A DNA stretch of 64,000 nucleotides from Deltaproteobacteria bacterium (GTDB lineage: Bacteria > Desulfobacterota > Syntrophia > Syntrophales > Smithellaceae). Numbering within the stretch: position 1 is the first letter of the stretch; each line of letters starts with the position of its first letter. Made by a program: the position numbers and the translations under genes. A model generated the notes under the pieces. It saw only the letters and a list, made by a program, of their open reading frames with translations, made no database searches and was not told the origin of the DNA. The stretch covers positions 2,166 to 66,165 of the forward strand of contig JANYAY010000147.1 in NCBI GenBank assembly GCA_025361065.1. The letters are read 5' to 3'. Positions 5,677 through 15,609 of the stretch are shown in pieces.

Positions 5677-6330
5677 ATGACAGAAGCAACTAAGCTCGCT
5701 TTATGCGGTTTGAGGGATCTTTCCATGATCAAATGGTATATAATTCCTCTTCTATCTCTTGTTTTTTATGTTTATGCCCGTGAAATAAGAGAAGCGCGCC
5801 GGACTAAGGACTGGAACGCTCTACTGGCCGGTTTGACCATTTTCGGCGTTGATTTTTTCAACGAGACCTGGAACGGCTGGATATTGCATTTTACTGCTCG
5901 TTCCGCCTTCTGGACAACACCCGGTGATACGGCGCTGCGCACAATGGTGGGTTGGAATATCGAGATCATGTTCATGTTTCTGCTTTTGGGTATCATTTAC
6001 TACCATACTCTTTCGGAAAGCAAAAAAGAGAAAATACTGGGGATTCCCGAAAAGTGGTTCTGGGCAATAGGCTACAGTGTCTTTTGCGTTTTTGTTGAAT
6101 GCCTGCTGAATATCGGCGGATTGCTCGTCTGGGAATACCCCCTCTGGTCTTTATCTTTCCGGGGCATCTGGCTTATCTTCCTGATCGGCTACTTTCATTT
6201 CTTCTGCTTTGCCATTCTGGTTATCAGCCTGAAGGCGATGAAAAGCAAAATTATTACTGTAGGAATTATTTACGCGGTGCCGGTTATAATGAACATCCTT
6301 GCTTTCGGTTTCTGGGGCTGGATATACTAG
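5677..6330 (+). CDS. integral membrane protein, unknown function (~6 TM)
   Basis: 217-aa hydrophobic ORF with a GAGGAGG RBS, 20 nt after the ADH stop. No family recognised. Confidence 0.6.
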   Translation: MTEATKLALCGLRDLSMIKWYIIPLLSLVFYVYAREIREARRTKDWNALLAGLTIFGVDFFNETWNGWILHFTARSAFWTTPGDTALRTMVGWNIEIMFMFLLLGIIYYHTLSESKKEKILGIPEKWFWAIGYSVFCVFVECLLNIGGLLVWEYPLWSLSFRGIWLIFLIGYFHFFCFAILVISLKAMKSKIITVGIIYAVPVIMNILAFGFWGWIY

Positions 6331-7445
6331 AGTAAAGCTCCACCGATTTTTGCCTGCCGGATCTGCAAGAGTCTTTTTTTAAGCGTCATCAGCGATTCCA
6401 TATCCTGCTGAAGATAAGAATATTCAGCGGGCGCGGAAATGTTCCAACTGCCGGATATTTGAGCGATGGCGGTTTGAAATTCAGCGGCAAGGTTCGCAAA
6501 GGTAATTATCAGAGGAATGGGCGAGGCGAGGCTCCGATCAAGTCTACCGGCTGCCTCATAAGCGATAACCCTCAGGGTTTGCAGCAGGGCATGTACGGCG
6601 CCCAGCTCGCCTTGCCTTGTTTGGTCCGTTTCCGCCTTGTTTACACGGATGGCGTCAATCAACATGGTGAATTGCGCGGTCATACCGCCCAGGACAGGTC
6701 CCATCATCACCACATCTTCTATCTCCCCCAGGGGGACGACAATATCCTTCCAGGCGCATCCTTTCTTACCCAGAATAGATGCTTTTGCGACAAGGCAATC
6801 TTCCAGTCGAATGCCGCCATGAGGCGAAGGTTTTAAAAATTTCATGGTAAGCGGCGATGTGACGGTGACGCCGGGGGATGTGCGCGACACGATGAATGCT
6901 GTATAATGTTTTTTGGCCGGGGTCTCATCGGTTGCAGCAATGACAATAAAAATACCCGCAATCGGGCCGTTGGTCAGATAAGCCTTTTCACCGTTTAACG
7001 AATAATAAGAGGCGTGTTTTTTTGCCGACGTGGTCAGCATTTTAGGATGCGCACCGCGTCCCGGTTCGGAGACGCCAAAAGACAGTGTGATTTTACCTTC
7101 GGCTGCGCCGCGCAGGTATTGTCGCCGCTGCAGAGGTGTGCCGAACACGGCAATCACGTAATGAGCAAGAATCTGCTGATAAAGCCAGGAGAAGGCCAGA
7201 CCAAGGTTGCTGCCGCTTTGGACAAAAGCCTCTCCCGCCTTCAAAAGTGCGAGATAGCCCCCGCCCGCACCACCGTATATCTCTGCGATGCCGATTTTAA
7301 AAAGTCCGGCCTTTCCCATTTTTTGCCAGATATCAAGGGGAAATTCATGCCCCGTCTGCAAATCCAGGCGTGTGGCAATATGCTCGGCGGCAAAAGCCGC
7401 AGCCTGTTTGTATGTTATTATCTTGTTTTTATCCGGTTGCTGCAT
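6327..7445 (-). CDS. acyl-CoA dehydrogenase family protein
   Basis: 372 aa with ACAD-like N- and middle-domain stretches (FGVSEPGRGAHP, YLTNGPIAG). Confidence 0.8.
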   Translation of the reverse strand: MQQPDKNKIITYKQAAAFAAEHIATRLDLQTGHEFPLDIWQKMGKAGLFKIGIAEIYGGAGGGYLALLKAGEAFVQSGSNLGLAFSWLYQQILAHYVIAVFGTPLQRRQYLRGAAEGKITLSFGVSEPGRGAHPKMLTTSAKKHASYYSLNGEKAYLTNGPIAGIFIVIAATDETPAKKHYTAFIVSRTSPGVTVTSPLTMKFLKPSPHGGIRLEDCLVAKASILGKKGCAWKDIVVPLGEIEDVVMMGPVLGGMTAQFTMLIDAIRVNKAETDQTRQGELGAVHALLQTLRVIAYEAAGRLDRSLASPIPLIITFANLAAEFQTAIAQISGSWNISAPAEYSYLQQDMESLMTLKKRLLQIRQAKIGGALL

Positions 7446-7610
7446 ACTTTTTCCTCGTTACATCTACGCGTCAAGTGTTTTTGGTTTGGAAATCAACGAA
7501 ATATTACCATTTGAACTGTGGTTAACATTGTTTTTGCCAGTGTCCGACATGATGATATCGGTGATGACAAATTCGAAAGATTTCTTTCGGAGGAGATTGG
7601 GTCATTCCGA

Positions 7611-8123
7611 TTAAATATTGAACTCCTTCCTTACTCTGAGCGTAATTTCTTTCAACAGTGCTGATTTTATGAACAATGTGCTTCGTGAAGGAATCATGCT
7701 GAGTATAGATAATACTTCTTCCGGACTTTTCTGCCCCCGTCTTATAGATCGCAGAATAACACCAATCGTTCCATGAACCTTGAACCCCATACGCTCCGCA
7801 ACCATTCGGGCAGATGCGTCATCCGTAAGAAAAATAGCTTCTGGATGGCTTTCCATGATGGTTAATGCTTCAGTTTCTCCAATATCCAGGGCAAAGACTC
7901 TGCACATTGCCAAGAGACGGTCATCTGCGGGATTATGGCCACGCAATACACTGAATGGCAGTTTTGCTGTCAGGGCAAGAGGTTGATGTTTCTCGATTTC
8001 GTCAACAACGGAGGAGGGTAAGATGATCTTTCTGAAATCGCGAAGAAGGTCGAGGCAACTGATTTCATCGAGATGAATTATGGGACCGGCATCACATACG
8101 ATATCTGTGTCTGCGTCAATCAT
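7611..8123 (-). CDS. PIN-domain (DUF3368-like) toxin
   Basis: Acidic PIN residues in DAGPIIHL, VVDEI and FLTDDASAR..GTIGVIL. The ATG at 8123 overlaps the upstream antitoxin stop (ATGATTGA). The ORF track's longer start at 8144 is less likely. Confidence 0.7.
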   Translation of the reverse strand: MIDADTDIVCDAGPIIHLDEISCLDLLRDFRKIILPSSVVDEIEKHQPLALTAKLPFSVLRGHNPADDRLLAMCRVFALDIGETEALTIMESHPEAIFLTDDASARMVAERMGFKVHGTIGVILRSIRRGQKSPEEVLSILSMIPSRSTLFIKSALLKEITLRVRKEFNI

Positions 8124-8310
8124 TGCCGTGGAGACCCCATTCAATGTCGTCGCGAATGAACTTCTGCATCAAATCAGATTGGTGGGTATCGAGGAAACGA
8201 CGGATTGCTTCAGAAAATAAATCCTGTTCATCACGAAACCATCCCTCGCTAACAAGAGCGACGGCCTTGTTATACAGAGCTTCCGGCACCTCCGTTTGCA
8301 CTGTTTTCAT
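8116..8310 (-). CDS. putative antitoxin (ribbon-helix-helix-like)
   Basis: 64 aa, translationally coupled to the PIN gene. The segment ALVSEGWFRDEQDLFSEAIRRFL is RHH-like. Confidence 0.55.
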   Translation of the reverse strand: MKTVQTEVPEALYNKAVALVSEGWFRDEQDLFSEAIRRFLDTHQSDLMQKFIRDDIEWGLHGND

Positions 8311-8419
8311 AAGACTCCTCCAAGCACATCTAAAATATTTAATATAAAGTCAATTTCCTTGACTTCATTTACATTTACAATAGCAGATAGTAAAGAAATG
8401 AGCAAGGTCGGCTATGTTT

Positions 8420-8824
8420 GCGTTTTAGGAGAAGCGCCGCGACCCGGTTCAGAGACGGCAAAAGAAAAAGTGACCTTTCCTTCGGCTGCCGCGCACAGGT
8501 ATTGCCGCCGCTGCTCGGGTGTGCCAAACGAACCAACAACAGAATGAGCGATAATCTGCTGGAAGAGCCAGGATATGCCAAGCCCAAGATTGTAGCCGCT
8601 TTTAACGAAAGCCTCCCCCGCTTTCAATAGATCGAGATACCCGCCACCCGGACCGCCATATTTTTCTGCGATCCCGATTTTAAAGAGGCCGACCTTTCCC
8701 ATTTTTTGCCAGATATCAAGGGGAAATTCATGCCCCGTCTGCAGATCCGGGCGGCAGGCAATATGCTCGGCAGAAAAGTCGCAGCCTGTTTGTGTGTTTT
8801 AATTGGTTCGTCTAGTTGATGCAT
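8420..8824 (-). pseudogene. 5' fragment of an acyl-CoA dehydrogenase paralogue (truncated and frameshifted)
   Basis: Nucleotide-level alignment with 7040-7445, including a ~50-nt identical block (ctttcccattttttgccagatatcaaggggaaattcatgccccgtctgca). A 1-nt deletion relative to the intact gene lies near 8771-8782. Homology ends at ~8425. Confidence 0.75.
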
Positions 8825-9007
8825 ATTTCTCATGTTACACATACTAACAAATGATTTTGAAAATTCCTGACGTTGTGGATTACTATTCGAAAGGTGCCAC
8901 ATAGAGTTGAGTTGACCCGCCGAATCAGAGACTCTATGAACCACAACACACAGAATCTATACGAATCATACTGCATCCACGGGATCAACTCCAACAATTA
9001 TCTGGCT

Positions 9008-9934
9008 CTATTTTATTTTTTTCATAATCCATTCTACCAACCCTAATTCTATAACCATTTTCGCTATTCGTTTAGGTAGTATTAGTTCAGCGGGACAATC
9101 TTGTGACGGTCTGTAGTTGAGAAGGTCTATAGAAGGTGTATGGACGACAAAATAAAGTTTTCGAAAATATCCTCCTGGAAATGAATCAATATATTGTTCA
9201 AAATCACTTGCTGTAGCTTCAGATTTCACTTGTACCTGATAGCAATCTCCGGTAATAGGTTCTAATAGTTCGAGATCGGCATATTTCATTGTTTCACCAA
9301 GAACGCTTACTCTTTGCCAACCGGCGTTTCTAAATAGCAGGTCAACAAGAGTTTCAAAGTCTTTCCAGTGTAGCCTACTAATCCCTTTTTCCATTTCAAG
9401 TTCCAGCTTCGTTTTAGCATCTAGAATTGATATATAACTTTCACTTGGACTATCATTGATCAGGCGTTTGAGATCTTCTGTTTCCTTCACTCTACAAATC
9501 GTTCCGCGGAACCCTTGAGTCTTTCCAATGTTTCCAGGGATTTGGTTCGCAGTCAGTATATGACCATGGATATCAGAATTGCTCCATGATGCAACCGACA
9601 GCCGATATTTTGAGATATTATCCTGTTGAACCGGTAGATTCGCGATTCTACACCACCATAACTGACTTTTATGAAATGTGATCCAAATGTCATTTGAACT
9701 AGATTCCACAAACATTCTCAGGGCATTAATATCTGTTGATGCTGCGCCTTTATTAATATACTCACCACTATGCTTTAGCTTTAGTATATCCCAATCCGCT
9801 TCGTTTATTTCATCTAGCGTCCATTCAGTCCATCCGATTCTTAGCTTGTTATCATGGATGCTCGATTCTTCCCATTTTCCTCCCTTTCCAAGTTTGATGT
9901 AGTAAGCGTCTTTGAAGTCTATTGGATTCATCAT
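9008..9934 (-). CDS. hypothetical protein with a C-terminal Mrr-like PD-(D/E)xK nuclease signature
   Basis: 308 aa. The C-terminal segment HWKDFETLVDLLFRNAGW...YADLELLE...YQVQVKS fits the Mrr_cat pattern (FExLV..L, D-x-E, QxK). The N-terminal ~165 aa are unassigned. The gene is AT-rich. Confidence 0.55.
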   Translation of the reverse strand: MMNPIDFKDAYYIKLGKGGKWEESSIHDNKLRIGWTEWTLDEINEADWDILKLKHSGEYINKGAASTDINALRMFVESSSNDIWITFHKSQLWWCRIANLPVQQDNISKYRLSVASWSNSDIHGHILTANQIPGNIGKTQGFRGTICRVKETEDLKRLINDSPSESYISILDAKTKLELEMEKGISRLHWKDFETLVDLLFRNAGWQRVSVLGETMKYADLELLEPITGDCYQVQVKSEATASDFEQYIDSFPGGYFRKLYFVVHTPSIDLLNYRPSQDCPAELILPKRIAKMVIELGLVEWIMKKIK

Positions 9935-10048
9935 GTAATTCGCCTAAGCCCGAGTATCGATATAAATAGAGGGGCTGCCCCTTTCTCCTTTAGTTTCGCC
10001 ATAACACTTTTGTTCATGGGCAAACATTGGCGTGCTCCGTGGAACAAC

Positions 10049-10744
10049 TTAGGGAAGAATGTCCCGAGCAACCTCAAAAATCAGCGGCCATATTTTCCTA
10101 TTACCTTCATACAAGTGTCCTAGGTTATAGGAACTACCATCTCTACGATATACACCGCCGCTTATGTCCAAGCACAAGAATGGAATATCATCTTTCAGGA
10201 GAAACCAAAAGTTATATGCGTATTCCCCAAAGAACGGTTCTATCTTTCTTAAATTTTCCTCCTTACCGAGACCAGGAAACTTCTCAAAAAGGTGGTGTCT
10301 TTTACCTCCACCTTCTCCTGAAGTATCTAAGCAGCCATTTCGGCATTCCCATTTATGTATACTAAATGCACTATGAGTGAGAAACGCAGAAATAAATCGA
10401 TAAACAAGAGTAGTTGGAGTGCTTAGCGGAAGTTGTGAAGGTACGGGTAATCCAATCATAAAAGAAATTCTGTCAAGTGTATCTTTTAAATTATTTGCGT
10501 CAAACATTTCAGCCCATATATCTAATGGTCCTTGCAATGTGCTGTTGTCAAACTTCGCAAAAATATGCAGACGTCCTTCTCTATTGAAGTCAGCAATATG
10601 ATTTTTCTCATCATCAAAAAGAGCAAGACAATCGTACAACCCACCTCCAGGATGGGTTTCAATCACTCTGAATTTGTCGGGGTAGCGTCTATGCAATTCA
10701 CTAACTATACGCCAAGATGCAATCTCAACCAATTGAGTATTCAT
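10049..10744 (-). CDS. hypothetical protein (no recognisable family), upstream partner of the nuclease-like gene
   Basis: 231-aa ORF with an ATG and a purine-rich RBS. It has the same strand and AT-rich composition as 9008-9934, with a 114-nt gap. Confidence 0.6.
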   Translation of the reverse strand: MNTQLVEIASWRIVSELHRRYPDKFRVIETHPGGGLYDCLALFDDEKNHIADFNREGRLHIFAKFDNSTLQGPLDIWAEMFDANNLKDTLDRISFMIGLPVPSQLPLSTPTTLVYRFISAFLTHSAFSIHKWECRNGCLDTSGEGGGKRHHLFEKFPGLGKEENLRKIEPFFGEYAYNFWFLLKDDIPFLCLDISGGVYRRDGSSYNLGHLYEGNRKIWPLIFEVARDILP

Positions 10745-11001
10745 ATTCTACCTTTGAGTCCCTTTCTATAGTCTCATAATTGGCTGCGTAATAATTAATA
10801 TCCGAACTTCGCTTTTCCCGATGAACCTAATAGCATATTAGCACTATTTGTTTTATTTTAAAGAGGAAATCACATAGCTTCATTGATAACGGATTTGAAA
10901 TGTTGCATTTTTGTCGAGGTTGATGATTTATTCATTAGCAGGAAGTATGCATCAACCAGATGAATCTTTATTTTTCCGTTTCATTTACGTTTACCTCTCA
11001 G

Positions 11002-12387
11002 CTACAGCACCAGCTCCTCAATAAAAGCGATGAGCTGGTTGACGTTACGGCAGAGACGAACTTCATGGCAGTGGTGCGTGTAAGTCTTAATCTCGCTGTC
11101 CCCAGTGCCCCAGAGGCTTTCCGGTTCGGGATTGAGCCAGATCACCCGCCGGCAGCGTTCGCGCATTTCACCCAGAATCGAATCCTCGGGGTGCATATAG
11201 TTGGAACGTCCGTCGCCGACGATAATGAGTGTTGTCTTTTTCGTCAGAAGCTCCATATACTCTCTCTTAAAATGACGAAACGTTTCACCGTAATCTGTTT
11301 GTGCATTATAATGAACGTCCGCTTCTTTCATGACAATACGCGTCGCCTCTTCAATGTCATGCTCCTCAAAGATATCTGTGACGTCCGTTAAGCGGTCAAT
11401 GAAGACAAAACTGTTCACCTTGTCAAAGCAATCCTGAAGGGAATAAAGGAGATTAAGCATGAAGCGGGCCGCCGCCCAGACGGAGCCGGATACGTCGCAC
11501 AGCGTGACAATCCGGCTTTTACGCAGGGCTTTCCGGCGGTATTTTATTTCGAGAGGAACGCCGTTGTATTTGGCCGATGACCTCAGTGTTTTTTTGACGT
11601 CCAGATTTCCCCGATCCCGCACCGCGAAGCGACGACTGACTACGTTCTTCAATTTACGCACCAGCTTATCGATGGCTTCCCGCATCTCTTCCACTTCCTG
11701 GAGGGTGAAGGACGAGAAATCTTTTTCTCCCAGATCCTTCAGTCGCTGGTCATAGGTTTTGACTTTTCGAGTACCGGCATCCCCCGATTGCGGTTCGTAC
11801 ATCAGGAGGGAACGGGCGGCATCGAATCGTTCGTTAAAATGAACGGCAAGATCGCGAAGGGCCGCAGATTCCATTTTAAAATAATTATCCTCCACCAATG
11901 CGGCGGCAGCGGAAGCTGCGTTGATTATCTGCATGAGGACGTTGATGCGACTGGCCAGCGGCCCGAAATTAAAGCGGGTCGGTGTTGTTTGATTGTCCGA
12001 TTCCGTATGAATCCGGCGCATTTCCGCAAGCAGCGGCAGGGGATTGCCGCCCAGAAAGTCCACTACGGCGTCGTAAACGGGATCATCGTGAGGCTTTTCC
12101 TTAAGAAGCGCTGCCGCTTTCCTTATTTGATCGGTCTGGGAGGCCGCTAATCTCATATCACCCGCATTCACACGCATTTCATGAAAGAAGAGATGATAGA
12201 TGCGGTCAAAGTGCTGTAATTCTCTTTGGCTCTTGGCAAAATTGGCACGAAGCAGTGCCCGAAATTGCGTCTCATCAGTTGGATCGATCAGTTTCAACTG
12301 ATGCAGACTGTCGAGAACCTCCGACGTGGAAACGCGCAGTCCCGCAGCCCGGCAGCAGGAAACGAATTGTTGGATCAGCAATACCAT
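11002..12387 (-). CDS. VWA domain protein (CoxE-like)
   Basis: 461 aa with a C-terminal VWA domain and MIDAS motif (LCDVSGSV; LIIVGDGRSN). Confidence 0.85.
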   Translation of the reverse strand: MVLLIQQFVSCCRAAGLRVSTSEVLDSLHQLKLIDPTDETQFRALLRANFAKSQRELQHFDRIYHLFFHEMRVNAGDMRLAASQTDQIRKAAALLKEKPHDDPVYDAVVDFLGGNPLPLLAEMRRIHTESDNQTTPTRFNFGPLASRINVLMQIINAASAAAALVEDNYFKMESAALRDLAVHFNERFDAARSLLMYEPQSGDAGTRKVKTYDQRLKDLGEKDFSSFTLQEVEEMREAIDKLVRKLKNVVSRRFAVRDRGNLDVKKTLRSSAKYNGVPLEIKYRRKALRKSRIVTLCDVSGSVWAAARFMLNLLYSLQDCFDKVNSFVFIDRLTDVTDIFEEHDIEEATRIVMKEADVHYNAQTDYGETFRHFKREYMELLTKKTTLIIVGDGRSNYMHPEDSILGEMRERCRRVIWLNPEPESLWGTGDSEIKTYTHHCHEVRLCRNVNQLIAFIEELVL

Positions 12388-12443
12388 AGATCACCGGATT
12401 ACATTTTTAATATTTCTGGATCCCCGGAAGTTTCCTTCACCCA

Positions 12444-13376
12444 TCAGGTAACGATCCGATCCATATTCTTCCGCACTTTTTCCATATCCATCTGGTATTT
12501 GCAAATGACATTGAGCGTTTCCGAAAGAACTTCCGGGGTCAGTTCATGAATCTGCAGCGCCAGAAGCGATTGTGCCCAGTCCAGGGTTTCCGAAATGCTG
12601 GGGCTTTTTTTCAGATCCAGCGTACGGATTTTGCGGATAGCGTCAACCAAAACAGCGCAAAGTTTTTCCTCGATGTCCGGAATTTTCAAGCGGACAATAT
12701 CGATCTCCGTTTCCCGCGCAGGATAATCGATATACAAATGAACGCAGCGGCGCTTGAGGGCGTCACTCATATCCCGATAGTTATTGGACGTCAGCAGAAC
12801 AAAGGGTATCTTGATGGCTTTGCGGGTGCCCAGTTCGGGGATGGATACCTGAAAATCACTGAGCAGTTCCAGAAGAAAGGCTTCAAATTCCGGATCGGAC
12901 TTGTCGACTTCGTCCAGCAGCAGCACTACCGGCTTCTCCGAACTGATGGCTTGCAGAAGTGGGCGCGGCTGGATAAAGCGGTCGGAAAAAAAAGCGTCTT
13001 CCTGTGCGGCTATCTGATCTACAGCTTCAGCCAGTGTCGCTGTGGAGCTGATAATATCGTTAATCCTATCCTTCACCATCTGTGTATAGAGCAGTTGCTT
13101 GGCGTATTCCCATTCATAAAGGGCTTTGGCCTCATCCAGGCCTTCGTAGCACTGAAGGCGGATCAGCTCGCGATCGAGGCTCCGGGCGACCGCTTTAGCC
13201 AGTTCCGTTTTTCCCACACCTGCCGGTCCTTCGATTAAAATTGGTTTTTGGGTCGCCTGCGCCAGGAAAACAACAGTTGTTATTTCCCGGGAAGGAATAT
13301 AGCCGGCCTGTGTAAGCCTCAATTGGACATCCGCAATACTATTATATTCCATTAACAATTTAATCCTTTCTGACAT
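12444..13376 (-). CDS. MoxR/CoxD-like AAA+ ATPase
   Basis: Walker A GPAGVGKT and Walker B VLLLDEVDK. The ATG at 13376 is preferred over the TTG at 13436. Confidence 0.85.
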   Translation of the reverse strand: MSERIKLLMEYNSIADVQLRLTQAGYIPSREITTVVFLAQATQKPILIEGPAGVGKTELAKAVARSLDRELIRLQCYEGLDEAKALYEWEYAKQLLYTQMVKDRINDIISSTATLAEAVDQIAAQEDAFFSDRFIQPRPLLQAISSEKPVVLLLDEVDKSDPEFEAFLLELLSDFQVSIPELGTRKAIKIPFVLLTSNNYRDMSDALKRRCVHLYIDYPARETEIDIVRLKIPDIEEKLCAVLVDAIRKIRTLDLKKSPSISETLDWAQSLLALQIHELTPEVLSETLNVICKYQMDMEKVRKNMDRIVT

Positions 13377-13795
13377 TTTATCAATAATAAGGGGAAGATG
13401 TATTGATTGATAAGGACTTCTTTTAATTGGTCGCAAGTATAGTTAGACCTTGCTTGTATGTCAATGAAAATCACTGTCCTGTGGAGGGGCGTGATAACTA
13501 AGTATTGAAAATTGCGATAAGTCACTTACACAATGCTTTACGGATGGTTTACTTCTACACATAATCAAATGAGTTTTGATTATAGAAGGATAATTATTTT
13601 GGGGCGCTTTCTTAAATTGTCCTGACATATATTTGACTTGACAGACAACATCAAATGTAGGTCCTGCCTCGGTTTTCGGTTTCGCCTACATAAGTCTCAG
13701 AAGTGGGCAGTTGTCAGAATTGAGAATTACGGATCAAAATAGAGTAACACAGCCATGGACAGAGAGCAGGATTTATTGGCGATCAGGGACAACAC

Positions 13796-14605
13796 CTAGC
13801 CTTTTCTTTTGAGAACGGCAAAACAGCCGTACCTCTTATTCGACACCATGCATTCATAAATGAGTTCACTTGCATTCTTTTCTTCGAGGAATTCATCAAC
13901 TGCCGTCTTTACACCTGTTGAGAAAAAGTCATAATCATCCACAATTATTATAGCTCCAGTTGAAGTTGTTTGGTGAAGAAAGTTAAGAGTGAGTTTTATT
14001 GGCTCATAAAAATCGAAATCCACGTAAGCAAAACTTACTGCTTTGGGTAAGCTTACATCATCACTAATCAGTTGGTCAATTAATCCCTTGTGAATAACAA
14101 ACCTCTGTGGTGGAAATGATATTGCCTTAAGACGAGTGCGGACCATTTCTTCTGGGCACGACATTGTCCCGGTGTAGGCTTCAATACTGCCTAGTGAAAA
14201 AATATCGTCCTTAAGTTGATCTTCTTTTGTAGGTTTGGAGAGTCCTTCAAAAGAGTCGAACAAGTGAAGGATTTTATTGCCGGATTGTATTTCATTGGCG
14301 ATGAGAGCCGATGTCTCCCCTTGGGCCACTCCAAATTCACAAACGACACCACTAACATCTTTGCACTCAGCCAATGCATGCACAATGAAATATGCTTCGG
14401 CTGGTTGTGTACCAGTCAACCGGACAAGTAGTTTTGAACGAATTTCGTTTGCAACTATAAAAATTCCTAATTCATTGAGACGCTGCTCATATGCTTGCGC
14501 AAGGTTTGAAAAGTTGATGAAGATGTCTCGTTCTCCTGAACTACTGTGTAGTTCATATCCCAAGACTGCGAGGGCTTTCTTGATTGCCTTCTTCAGAATT
14601 TTCAC
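13796..14605 (-). CDS. TylF/MycF-family SAM-dependent O-methyltransferase
   Basis: 269 aa with CEFGVAQGETS, LFDSFEGL and IIVDDYD stretches. GTG start with AAGGAGG. AT-rich. Confidence 0.7.
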   Translation of the reverse strand: MKILKKAIKKALAVLGYELHSSSGERDIFINFSNLAQAYEQRLNELGIFIVANEIRSKLLVRLTGTQPAEAYFIVHALAECKDVSGVVCEFGVAQGETSALIANEIQSGNKILHLFDSFEGLSKPTKEDQLKDDIFSLGSIEAYTGTMSCPEEMVRTRLKAISFPPQRFVIHKGLIDQLISDDVSLPKAVSFAYVDFDFYEPIKLTLNFLHQTTSTGAIIIVDDYDFFSTGVKTAVDEFLEEKNASELIYECMVSNKRYGCFAVLKRKG

Positions 14606-14781: not shown

Positions 14782-15609
14782 TTAGACCTTCTCAAATATG
14801 ATGCCTTCGTCTTCCTGTTCAAGATTGTACATTTCAGTCAAATGACTAAGAAAGTCTGAGGCGGGCAACTTAAGTCGTTTCGATGGTATAGTCACCATAG
14901 AAAAATAAGGCTCGATTACTGATAGAAATTGCTCTACTGTTACACCACCAACATTCTTCAGGTGATGCGGCAAAAACTCTACTACGAGCAGCTTACATCT
15001 GGAGAGTATCTCCTGCATCCCCTGCAAGGCAAAGTATTCAGATCCCTCTATGTCCATAACAACAATATCAAAGTCTTTTTCTTTTAGGTATTTATCAAGA
15101 CCAACTGCCTTAATAGAGATTGTTTCCGGATTATCATAGTAATACATAAATTTTTTAATCTTCGGAGTTCGTTTACTGCCTCCCGAATTTACCCTACTCA
15201 GTAAAAATTTAATATTTTCCTCTTTATCACTTGCGGCTATATTTATTGCCTGACAATTAGAAGCCGAATTCAATGCAATATTTATTGTTAACAAATCGTA
15301 TGTGGTTGGATTTGCCTCTATAGCGACAACCTTTTTACAAAGTTTAGATATAGGTATCGCCAATGTGCCGATGTGTGCCCCTATGATTAAGACTCTACTA
15401 TCTGGTGTAATATGTGGCTTCAACCTTTCAATTTCATCCAAACCATGCTTCCCCCACATTCGCAATTTTCCGCCAACCCCAAAATCTTCTGGATCAACGG
15501 CAAACAAACCATTATCTGACTTTACGATCAATGCAAATACATGCGATCCAAGAATTTTTTTGGTGAAAGTAGCTATCAATATTTGAATAGCAATTTTTAA
15601 TAGTCTCAT
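14782..15609 (-). CDS. FkbM-family methyltransferase
   Basis: 275 aa with the IGAHIGT and VMDIEGSEYFALQGM hallmarks. AT-rich. Ends in TAATAA. Confidence 0.7.
   Translation of the reverse strand: MRLLKIAIQILIATFTKKILGSHVFALIVKSDNGLFAVDPEDFGVGGKLRMWGKHGLDEIERLKPHITPDSRVLIIGAHIGTLAIPISKLCKKVVAIEANPTTYDLLTINIALNSASNCQAINIAASDKEENIKFLLSRVNSGGSKRTPKIKKFMYYYDNPETISIKAVGLDKYLKEKDFDIVVMDIEGSEYFALQGMQEILSRCKLLVVEFLPHHLKNVGGVTVEQFLSVIEPYFSMVTIPSKRLKLPASDFLSHLTEMYNLEQEDEGIIFEKV

Follow-up and report, generated by a model that had tools for sequence, protein, structure and literature searches.

TY-Chap2 proteins have been predicted to be duplicated peptide-binding chaperones of the T3SS/YbjN type (T3SS, type III secretion system) in conflict systems centred on ADP-ribosylglycohydrolase (ARG) (Iyer, Burroughs, Anantharaman, Aravind 2022, Viruses 14:1977; PMC9503650), and these ARG-centred anti-ADP-ribosylation systems are 'often accompanied' by variable restriction endonuclease (REase) effectors (PMC9503650, section 3.8), with vWA proteins named as alternative 'chaperones' (PMC9503650). 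Two further points of reference are the Mrr/MspJI-type type IV restriction enzymes and PDC-S02, which is itself only a candidate defence gene. Here we compare with them two adjoining genes, geneA and geneB, of a 64-kb stretch of DNA from a Deltaproteobacteria bacterium (contig JANYAY010000147.1; the whole stretch is called the window below), which a first-pass annotation had put forward as a candidate for an undescribed, defence-like two-gene nuclease module that it could not match to a named defence system. With moderate confidence we favour a different reading, in which the cassette that carries these genes sets two separable conflict-type genes side by side, geneB being self-sufficient and the pair not being a conserved two-component system. 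The family of geneA, TY-Chap2, already has a name and a published association with REase effectors (PMC9503650), geneB is remotely related to PDC-S02, and in 39 geneB loci and 80 TY-Chap2 loci the two genes are co-localised only once, in a near-identical copy.

As described in the first-pass annotation, the two open reading frames (ORFs) are co-oriented, 114 nt apart and AT-rich, and all the peptide motifs quoted for them are present. The G+C content is 0.36-0.41 over positions 9001-11000 versus ~0.50 in the flanks. Because both genes belong to well-populated families, neither is a chance ORF. The locus comprises the following features:

10049-10744, minus strand: geneA, a TY-Chap2 family protein of 231 aa (Pfam PF22553)
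9008-9934, minus strand: geneB, a predicted solitary two-domain nuclease of 308 aa (homologues and AlphaFold2 (AF2) model)
9935-10048, minus strand: spacer of 114 nt between geneA and geneB, with a short GC hairpin and, behind it, a T-rich tail (9970-9982)
8838-10949, minus strand: AT-rich cassette of 2.1 kb, a blastn block common to contigs with unrelated flanks
9440-9934, minus strand: N-terminal domain of geneB, residues 1 to ~165, family-specific and without assignable fold
9011-9376, minus strand: C-terminal Mrr-type PD-(D/E)xK domain of geneB, residues 187-308 (Mrr_cat, Foldseek)
9353-9355 (E194), 9275-9277 (D220), 9230-9232 (Q235) and 9224-9226 (K237), minus strand: catalytic candidates of geneB, from conservation

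Separate distributions and mosaic history of geneA and geneB

A scan for geneB with strict peptide patterns, in which each species was represented by one genome, yielded 39 loci from diverse metagenome-assembled genomes of Acidobacteriota, Chloroflexota, Planctomycetota, Desulfobacterota, Spirochaetes, Gemmatimonadales, Verrucomicrobiota, Methanoculleus, Methanomassiliicoccaceae and others, and these loci were searched over +/-10 kb with a TY-Chap2 hidden Markov model built from 92 homologues. TY-Chap2 was found near geneB in one of the 39 loci only, L033, and in none of the 38 other genome loci; reciprocally, none of 80 metagenomic TY-Chap2 loci contained a relative of geneB. No neighbour family was shared by three or more of the 39 geneB loci. 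The 113 genes that flank geneB are mostly housekeeping genes by Pfam, HTH_3, antitoxin, AAA_21, ResIII and terminase occurring here and there among them, and no DNA methyltransferase is found among the 25 listed neighbour families, each of which accounts for at most 3 of the 113 neighbours. In 28 of 35 loci the geneB homologue has a higher A+T content than its flanks, the difference exceeding 5 points in 19 loci, and viral contigs contained one geneB locus and no TY-Chap2 locus. We conclude that geneB is a cellular gene that occurs alone and has been transferred horizontally. The first-pass description of it as nuclease-type and defence-like, with an unplaced N-terminal domain and no methyltransferase, ATPase or helicase attached, agrees with our results. 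Its pairing with geneA is confined to a shallow lineage and is a recent joining of two separate defence-type genes.

Within this lineage the genes travel together. By blastn, positions 10949-8838 of the window match loci L120 and L121 at 91.6%, while L122 matches 10234-8838 and L033 matches 10633-8836, and no match extends beyond the cassette block between the window and any of these four; further contigs with identical geneA are short. The unit first proposed is borne out to the extent that both genes move as one 2.1-kb cassette among a small number of closely related contigs; in every other genome examined geneB occurs alone. The cassette, which consists of ~205 nt of upstream sequence, geneA, the spacer, geneB and ~170 nt of downstream sequence, is itself a mosaic. 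Identity between the window and L120 is 94% in the upstream part and 91% over the first 111 nt of geneA, drops to 82% for the remainder of this gene and rises again through the spacer (90%) to 97-98% in geneB, with 96.5% in the downstream part; synonymous divergence (dS) is 0.68 for residues 38-231 of geneA versus 0.07 for geneB. By these alignments, the body of geneA has undergone replacement by recombination relative to geneB. At L123 (310-1715), the 3' 370 nt of TY-Chap2 are 86% identical to positions 10051-10420 of the window and the homology ends at the stop codon; 80 nt further on lies the gene of an unrelated 203-aa protein that has a PD-(D/E)xK-like D...ELK motif and no Pfam match, an arrangement that resembles a swap of effectors at the gene boundary. 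In L033, geneA has decayed: a segment with the start and the HPGGG motif is lost, and a 22-nt deletion joins geneA in frame to geneB, which is intact and 97% identical to that of the window despite this decay. We considered whether the resulting 657-aa ORF is a natural geneA-geneB fusion and rejected this, since comparison with L120 and L125 (P0123) shows that two deletions gave rise to it.

The mosaic identity, the arrangements in L123 and L033 and the spacer hairpin together lead us to regard geneB with its own upstream region as autonomous, and TY-Chap2 as a separate module that recombines at gene boundaries. The terminator-like hairpin is weak; the region has 3 such sites versus 1.9 +/- 1.7 expected. 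RNA folding of the spacer is not unusual (z = -0.97), a scan for sigma-70 promoters at the locus gave no excess over chance, and Rfam and tRNA scans revealed nothing near the locus. The spacer probably carries geneB's own promoter as well.

Two observations concern the region in front of TY-Chap2 in related loci. Immediately in front of TY-Chap2, and in frame with it, L125-L127 (P0123) and L033 encode a domain of ~125 aa, referred to as 'X' (6401-6780 in L033; 2467-2850 in L125). By BLASTP (E=5e-16) this domain is a homologue of the N-terminal extension of P0324 (residues 1-120), a member of the geneB superfamily, so that the two families are linked indirectly; 'X' was found neither in the window nor in any other locus examined. 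A gene for a 585-aa abortive infection phage resistance (AIPR) protein (PF10592) lies directly upstream of the cassette in L033 (4298-6055), L125 (364-2121) and L126 (372-2129), which represent a second genomic context.

The two protein families

geneA matches PF22553 (TY-Chap2) with E=6.2e-51 and 173.8 bits, exceeding the gathering score of 27; residues 9-231 align to profile positions 2-223 of 223, i.e., over the full length, and PF22553 is present in 107 of 107 geneA homologues. A vague impression in the first-pass annotation that the upstream protein resembles chaperone-like accessory proteins of conflict systems thus proves right and is given a family name. The AF2 model (predicted local distance difference test score (pLDDT) 91.8, predicted template modelling score 0.91) contains two alpha + beta-meander repeats, as judged from the order of secondary structure only, with H3-20, four strands and helices followed by H110-124, strands and H208-229. 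Foldseek found no relative of this model in the PDB (best E=0.44) and did not reproduce the similarity to T3SS (CesT/YopN-chaperone)/YbjN, so the assignment as a chaperone rests on the published prediction (PMC9503650). NCBIfam and PHROGs scans gave nothing meaningful for either geneA or geneB. In TY-Chap2, residues H31, P32, G35, Y37, D38, C39, R55, G137 and C191 are invariant, R135 and N136 are invariant or nearly so, and the conserved motifs are ETHPGGGxYDC and WECRNG (WECRNGxxDTS). This pattern of conservation looks more like that of an active, catalytic or metal/ligand site than like a passive chaperone surface.

geneB has more than 700 homologues of ~306 aa, which share 50-60% identity over many phyla. 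The Mrr-type core that the first-pass annotation placed at its C-terminus is borne out by several lines of evidence. Mrr_cat (PF04471) matches residues 186-239 below threshold (E=0.0076; 16.8 bits versus a gathering score of 21), and a precomputed PF04471 match exists for 10 of 120 listed homologues. In the AF2 model (pLDDT 91.5) the nuclease and N-terminal domains are linked by a long helix, and every Foldseek match lies within the C-terminal part, on an REase or Mrr-like fold: in the PDB, the nuclease domain of Cap4 (6vm5; E=2.8e-3, prob 1.0), FokI and the N-domain of RPB5, and in BFVD, viral proteins that bear the names 'Restriction endonuclease', 'Mrr-like domain' or 'type IV Mrr domain', down to E=5.9e-6. 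Residues E194, D220, Q235 and K237 are invariant across 30 close homologues and are kept in 72-73 of 74 aligned sequences, i.e., geneB of the window and 73 distant homologues with 29-51% identity. The nuclease signature is E194...D220...Q235-x-K237, with the glutamate on a helix, the aspartate on a strand and then Q-x-K. D220 and K237 had been singled out correctly in the first-pass annotation; E222, the third residue claimed, is not conserved, as position 222 is variable (E 30, D 17, V 7, L 4 ... of 74).

The first ~165 aa of geneB, which could not be placed initially, still have no match in Pfam, among PDB sequences or among PDB folds. Pfam searches at E<=10 with ten members yielded only scattered, inconsistent sub-threshold matches, PDB sequence searches with the single sequence and with a family profile yielded noise only, and Foldseek yielded no PDB fold match; no SRA, EVE, YTH, PUA-like or winged-helix reader was found. 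A likeness of the YIKLG..GG.W and RIGW segments to EVE/PUA-like readers is unsupported by the Pfam scan and is not claimed here. Conserved residues of this domain are K14, G16, G19, R32, W84, W93, W94, R111, W117, C147 and N160, and the domain may act in target recognition. A profile search with it against 1.84 billion representative proteins returned at least 836 clusters at 50% identity. Since nearly all the best 150 of these matches are ~300-320 aa long with the domain at the N-terminus, the two-domain architecture is regarded as fixed. Within these 150, the pattern is broken by a few proteins with N-terminal extensions, including the ~125-aa one of P0324, and by one fusion to DUF262/GmrSD_N (P0262). 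In the latter, of 734 aa, the domain forms the C-terminus and is preceded by a DUF262/GmrSD_N-type part, which is of a type IV restriction family; this is the only clearly different architecture, and the protein may end at a contig break.

When compared with PADLOC-DB, residues 31-251 of geneB match positions 28-243 of the 299 positions of the PDC-S02 profile with E=5.6e-7 and 27.4 bits, and weak matches to PDC-S02 are also found in 28 of 30 close relatives (best ~7e-11). Of 37 distant superfamily members compared with the PDC-S02 models, 9 match the most-hit model and 4, 2 and 2 match the others. Because only some of the distant relatives match, geneB is regarded as a remote sister, not a clear member, of PDC-S02.

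Explanations of the pair and the surroundings of the cassette

According to the favoured reading, geneB would be the working unit, in which the Mrr-type domain (E194, D220, Q235-x-K237) cleaves DNA and the N-terminal domain selects the target. Since geneB is not accompanied by a methyltransferase that could protect the cell's own DNA, the target is probably non-self, in the form of a modification or a structure on foreign DNA. The action of geneB would then resemble that of type IV (modification-dependent) restriction enzymes or of defence nucleases encoded by one gene. TY-Chap2 would have been recombined in front of geneB in this lineage and would be at most an optional, lineage-specific accessory: geneA may modulate geneB by holding, activating or recruiting it, and geneB would not depend on geneA.

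Several points weigh against this reading. Because strict peptide patterns were used, the 39 geneB loci are a sample and not a census. geneA and geneB have moved jointly into at least three genomic contexts, which fits a functional pair too, and with omega at ~0.2 for both genes (~0.19 for geneA versus L120), both are under purifying selection. As TY-Chap2 repeatedly adjoins nucleases, its juxtaposition with geneB may not be accidental. Defence-island character is not pronounced around the geneB homologues, and one PDC-S02 representative, tested in a cold-seep study, was not among the four candidates found to give E. coli B protection against T4, T5 or T7 (10.1101/2024.09.26.614923). Finally, the nuclease activity, modification dependence and defence role of geneB are predicted from its sequence and from the structural model.

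The joint movement of the cassette into unrelated flanks and the purifying selection on both genes would also be expected of a genuine two-gene module that consists of TY-Chap2 and a swappable DNA-targeting effector, geneB being the effector captured here. In such a module TY-Chap2 would sense or bind a phage-derived or phage-modified protein and then license the nuclease, or restrain it at rest. What TY-Chap2 adjoins elsewhere, counted as co-oriented genes within 150 nt, speaks for this explanation: 11 of the 26 co-oriented upstream neighbours carry nuclease domains; REase-ARP/PDDEXK_13 makes up 7 of the 26, GmrSD, ERCC4, PDDEXK_7, NucS_C, ARG, SNF2 helicase and HEPN-DUF499 occur upstream once each, and downstream are found NERD, EEP nucleases, OLD-TOPRIM, GmrSD_N, UDG and SMC/AAA_23-type ATPases as well as many genes without a Pfam match. 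Over the 80 TY-Chap2 loci, ARG-like genes are present in 4 and REase-ARP in 10. The change of effector exactly at the TY-Chap2 stop codon in L123, the published association of TY-Chap2 with variable REase effectors (PMC9503650) and the link between TY-Chap2 and the geneB superfamily through the 'X' domain (L125-127, P0324) point in the same direction. The theme of TY-Chap2 beside an interchangeable DNA-targeting enzyme is real and has already been published in outline; the pairing with geneB is not conserved. Against a module built around geneB stand the failure of synteny in both directions (0/38 and 0/80), the solitary state of geneB elsewhere with no alternative partner, the retention of geneB beside a decayed geneA in L033, the tenfold difference in dS between the genes and the spacer, which has a terminator-like hairpin and is conserved together with geneB. 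We consider this module the main alternative, though clearly less likely than the favoured reading.

In seven of the TY-Chap2 loci (L091, L097, L101, L102, L103, L105 and L106) a conserved three-gene order is observed, in which REase-ARP/PDDEXK_13 (~342 aa) is followed by TY-Chap2 and then by an uncharacterised protein of 425 aa that contains an ELKD motif and matches nothing in Pfam.

A broader proposal is that TY-Chap2 defines an ARG-independent class of modular two-gene defence cassettes, in which a single sensor/adaptor protein is joined by recombination to effectors that are exchanged at its gene boundary, these being the Mrr-like nuclease of the window, the 203-aa D...ELK protein of L123 and, elsewhere, REase-ARP, NERD, EEP, OLD-TOPRIM and UDG, with the conserved His/Asp/Cys/Arg residues forming an enzymatic or ligand-sensing site and the N-terminal domain of geneB representing a new fold for reading DNA (modified bases). 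Taken as a whole, this proposal is tentative and strikes us as rather unlikely.

It is quite improbable that geneB has no part in defence and is instead a niche nuclease of DNA repair or recombination, or a selfish homing-type nuclease spread by horizontal gene transfer (HGT), with geneA as an unrelated neighbour. For this, the mean column identity of close geneB homologues is high (59%), and conservation across bacterial and archaeal phyla is unusually high, unlike the rapid diversification typical of defence genes; the mostly housekeeping neighbours and the lack of protection by the PDC-S02 representative in one test would fit as well. However, geneB is patchy over very distant phyla and mostly AT-richer than its flanks, a reader-like N-terminal domain joined to an Mrr-type nuclease is the architecture of type IV/IIM enzymes, PDC-S02, its remote homologue, is a family picked by defence-island enrichment, and AIPR, toxin-antitoxin and TY-Chap2 genes lie beside some geneB copies. 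Least probable is a toxin-antitoxin-like addiction pair, in which geneB is a DNA-cleaving toxin and geneA a proteinaceous antidote or chaperone that stabilises the cassette: the pair is small, co-oriented and mobile, has the putative antidote upstream of the nuclease and lies near another toxin-antitoxin-like pair, but geneB is without a recurrent neighbour in 38 genomes, so that the nuclease would not be intrinsically lethal, it stays intact beside the decayed geneA of L033, a 114-nt gap with a hairpin separates the genes in place of translational coupling, co-occurrence is limited to 1/39 and 0/80, and TY-Chap2 has no Pfam-detectable DNA-binding autoregulatory domain.

The cassette is bracketed in the window by a 23-nt inverted repeat, whose arms are 87% complementary:

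8807-8829, strand not assigned: right arm of the 23-nt inverted repeat, equal to the start-codon region of a fragment of an acyl-CoA dehydrogenase (ACAD) gene
10942-10964, strand not assigned: left arm of the 23-nt inverted repeat, at the upstream cassette edge, 38 nt past the VWA_CoxE stop

The window contains 3 copies of the repeat pattern versus 0.02 expected; the third, diverged copy (7428-7446) is the start of the full ACAD gene, and the left arm is an inverted copy of the ACAD start-codon sequence. As no equivalent was found at the cassette borders of L120 or L033, the repeat is regarded as specific to the window. A search for an empty integration site by means of the exact VWA protein found none on record.

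The cassette has VWA_CoxE and MoxR-type AAA ATPase genes as neighbours, together with the ACAD fragment and a gene for a PIN-like protein (sub-threshold PIN_4). The pair of MoxR-type AAA ATPase and VWA_CoxE (11002-13436, minus strand) is directly upstream of the cassette, has normal G+C content and is probably resident, because it lies outside the transferred block. The ACAD 5' fragment (8412-8825, minus strand), roughly the first 130 codons and partly frameshifted, is a diverged duplicate of the start of a full-length ACAD gene 1 kb away (6327-7445, minus strand), and the PIN-like/antitoxin-like pair (7611-8310) sits between the two ACAD copies; this layout points to successive insertion or recombination events at the 5' end of ACAD. 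Two methyltransferase genes (13796-14605 and 14782-15609, minus strand) in another AT-rich stretch 3-5 kb away encode a TylF-like (macrocin O-methyltransferase) and an FkbM-family protein, which more likely serve glycan or secondary-metabolite modification than DNA modification. Of the defence-island-like context described in the first-pass annotation, the gene fragment corresponds to the ACAD N-terminus, the methyltransferases are not obviously of a DNA type and the toxin of the toxin-antitoxin pair is matched only by PIN_4 below threshold.

If the favoured reading holds, its value is mainly one of annotation, in that a false 'new two-gene system' is removed and geneA is assigned to TY-Chap2. 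It also flags a large uncharacterised family of solitary Mrr-type nucleases spread by HGT across bacteria and archaea, which would be a reasonable target in the search for a modification-dependent restriction enzyme of new specificity. What goes beyond the literature is that the sampled TY-Chap2 genes are mostly found not beside ARG but beside swappable nucleases, with breakpoints at the gene boundary, and these data make the role of 'chaperone for ADP-ribosylated proteins' testable against that of 'adaptor/regulator of nuclease effectors'.

Comparison with known systems

geneA resembles the TY-Chap2 family in its full profile match, in its two-repeat model and in adjoining an REase-fold gene, as published. 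It differs from the ARG-centred systems in that no ARG, Nudix/WYL regulator, phosphatase or ARPP gene adjoins it. A profile search of the whole 64-kb window, in which the ARG profile was home-made from 4 sequences of ARG neighbours, likewise detected no ORF resembling ARG or REase-ARP. Elsewhere, the TY-Chap2 family was not seen with a geneB-type nuclease in the 80 loci sampled. The loci of REase-ARP and TY-Chap2 (PF22558 + PF22553) are like that of the window in that a co-oriented nuclease of REase fold directly adjoins TY-Chap2. In those loci, the nuclease is REase-ARP/PDDEXK_13, lies upstream and is usually accompanied by the conserved 425-aa third gene, whereas in the window the nuclease is Mrr-like, lies downstream and is not accompanied by a third gene.

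geneB resembles PDC-S02, a single-gene candidate of PADLOC-DB v2, in being one gene of ~300 aa with a weak match across both domains, and differs in its low scores (about 25-40 bits). It is unlike Mrr_cat in scoring below the Pfam gathering threshold and unlike Mrr in that its N-terminal domain is unrelated in sequence to Mrr_N. With the Mrr/MspJI-type type IV enzymes it shares the C-terminal PD-(D/E)xK domain with D...Q-x-K and an upstream helix glutamate, as well as the fusion of an N-terminal non-catalytic domain to this C-terminal nuclease, and like Mrr and other type IV enzymes it is solitary, without a cognate methyltransferase.

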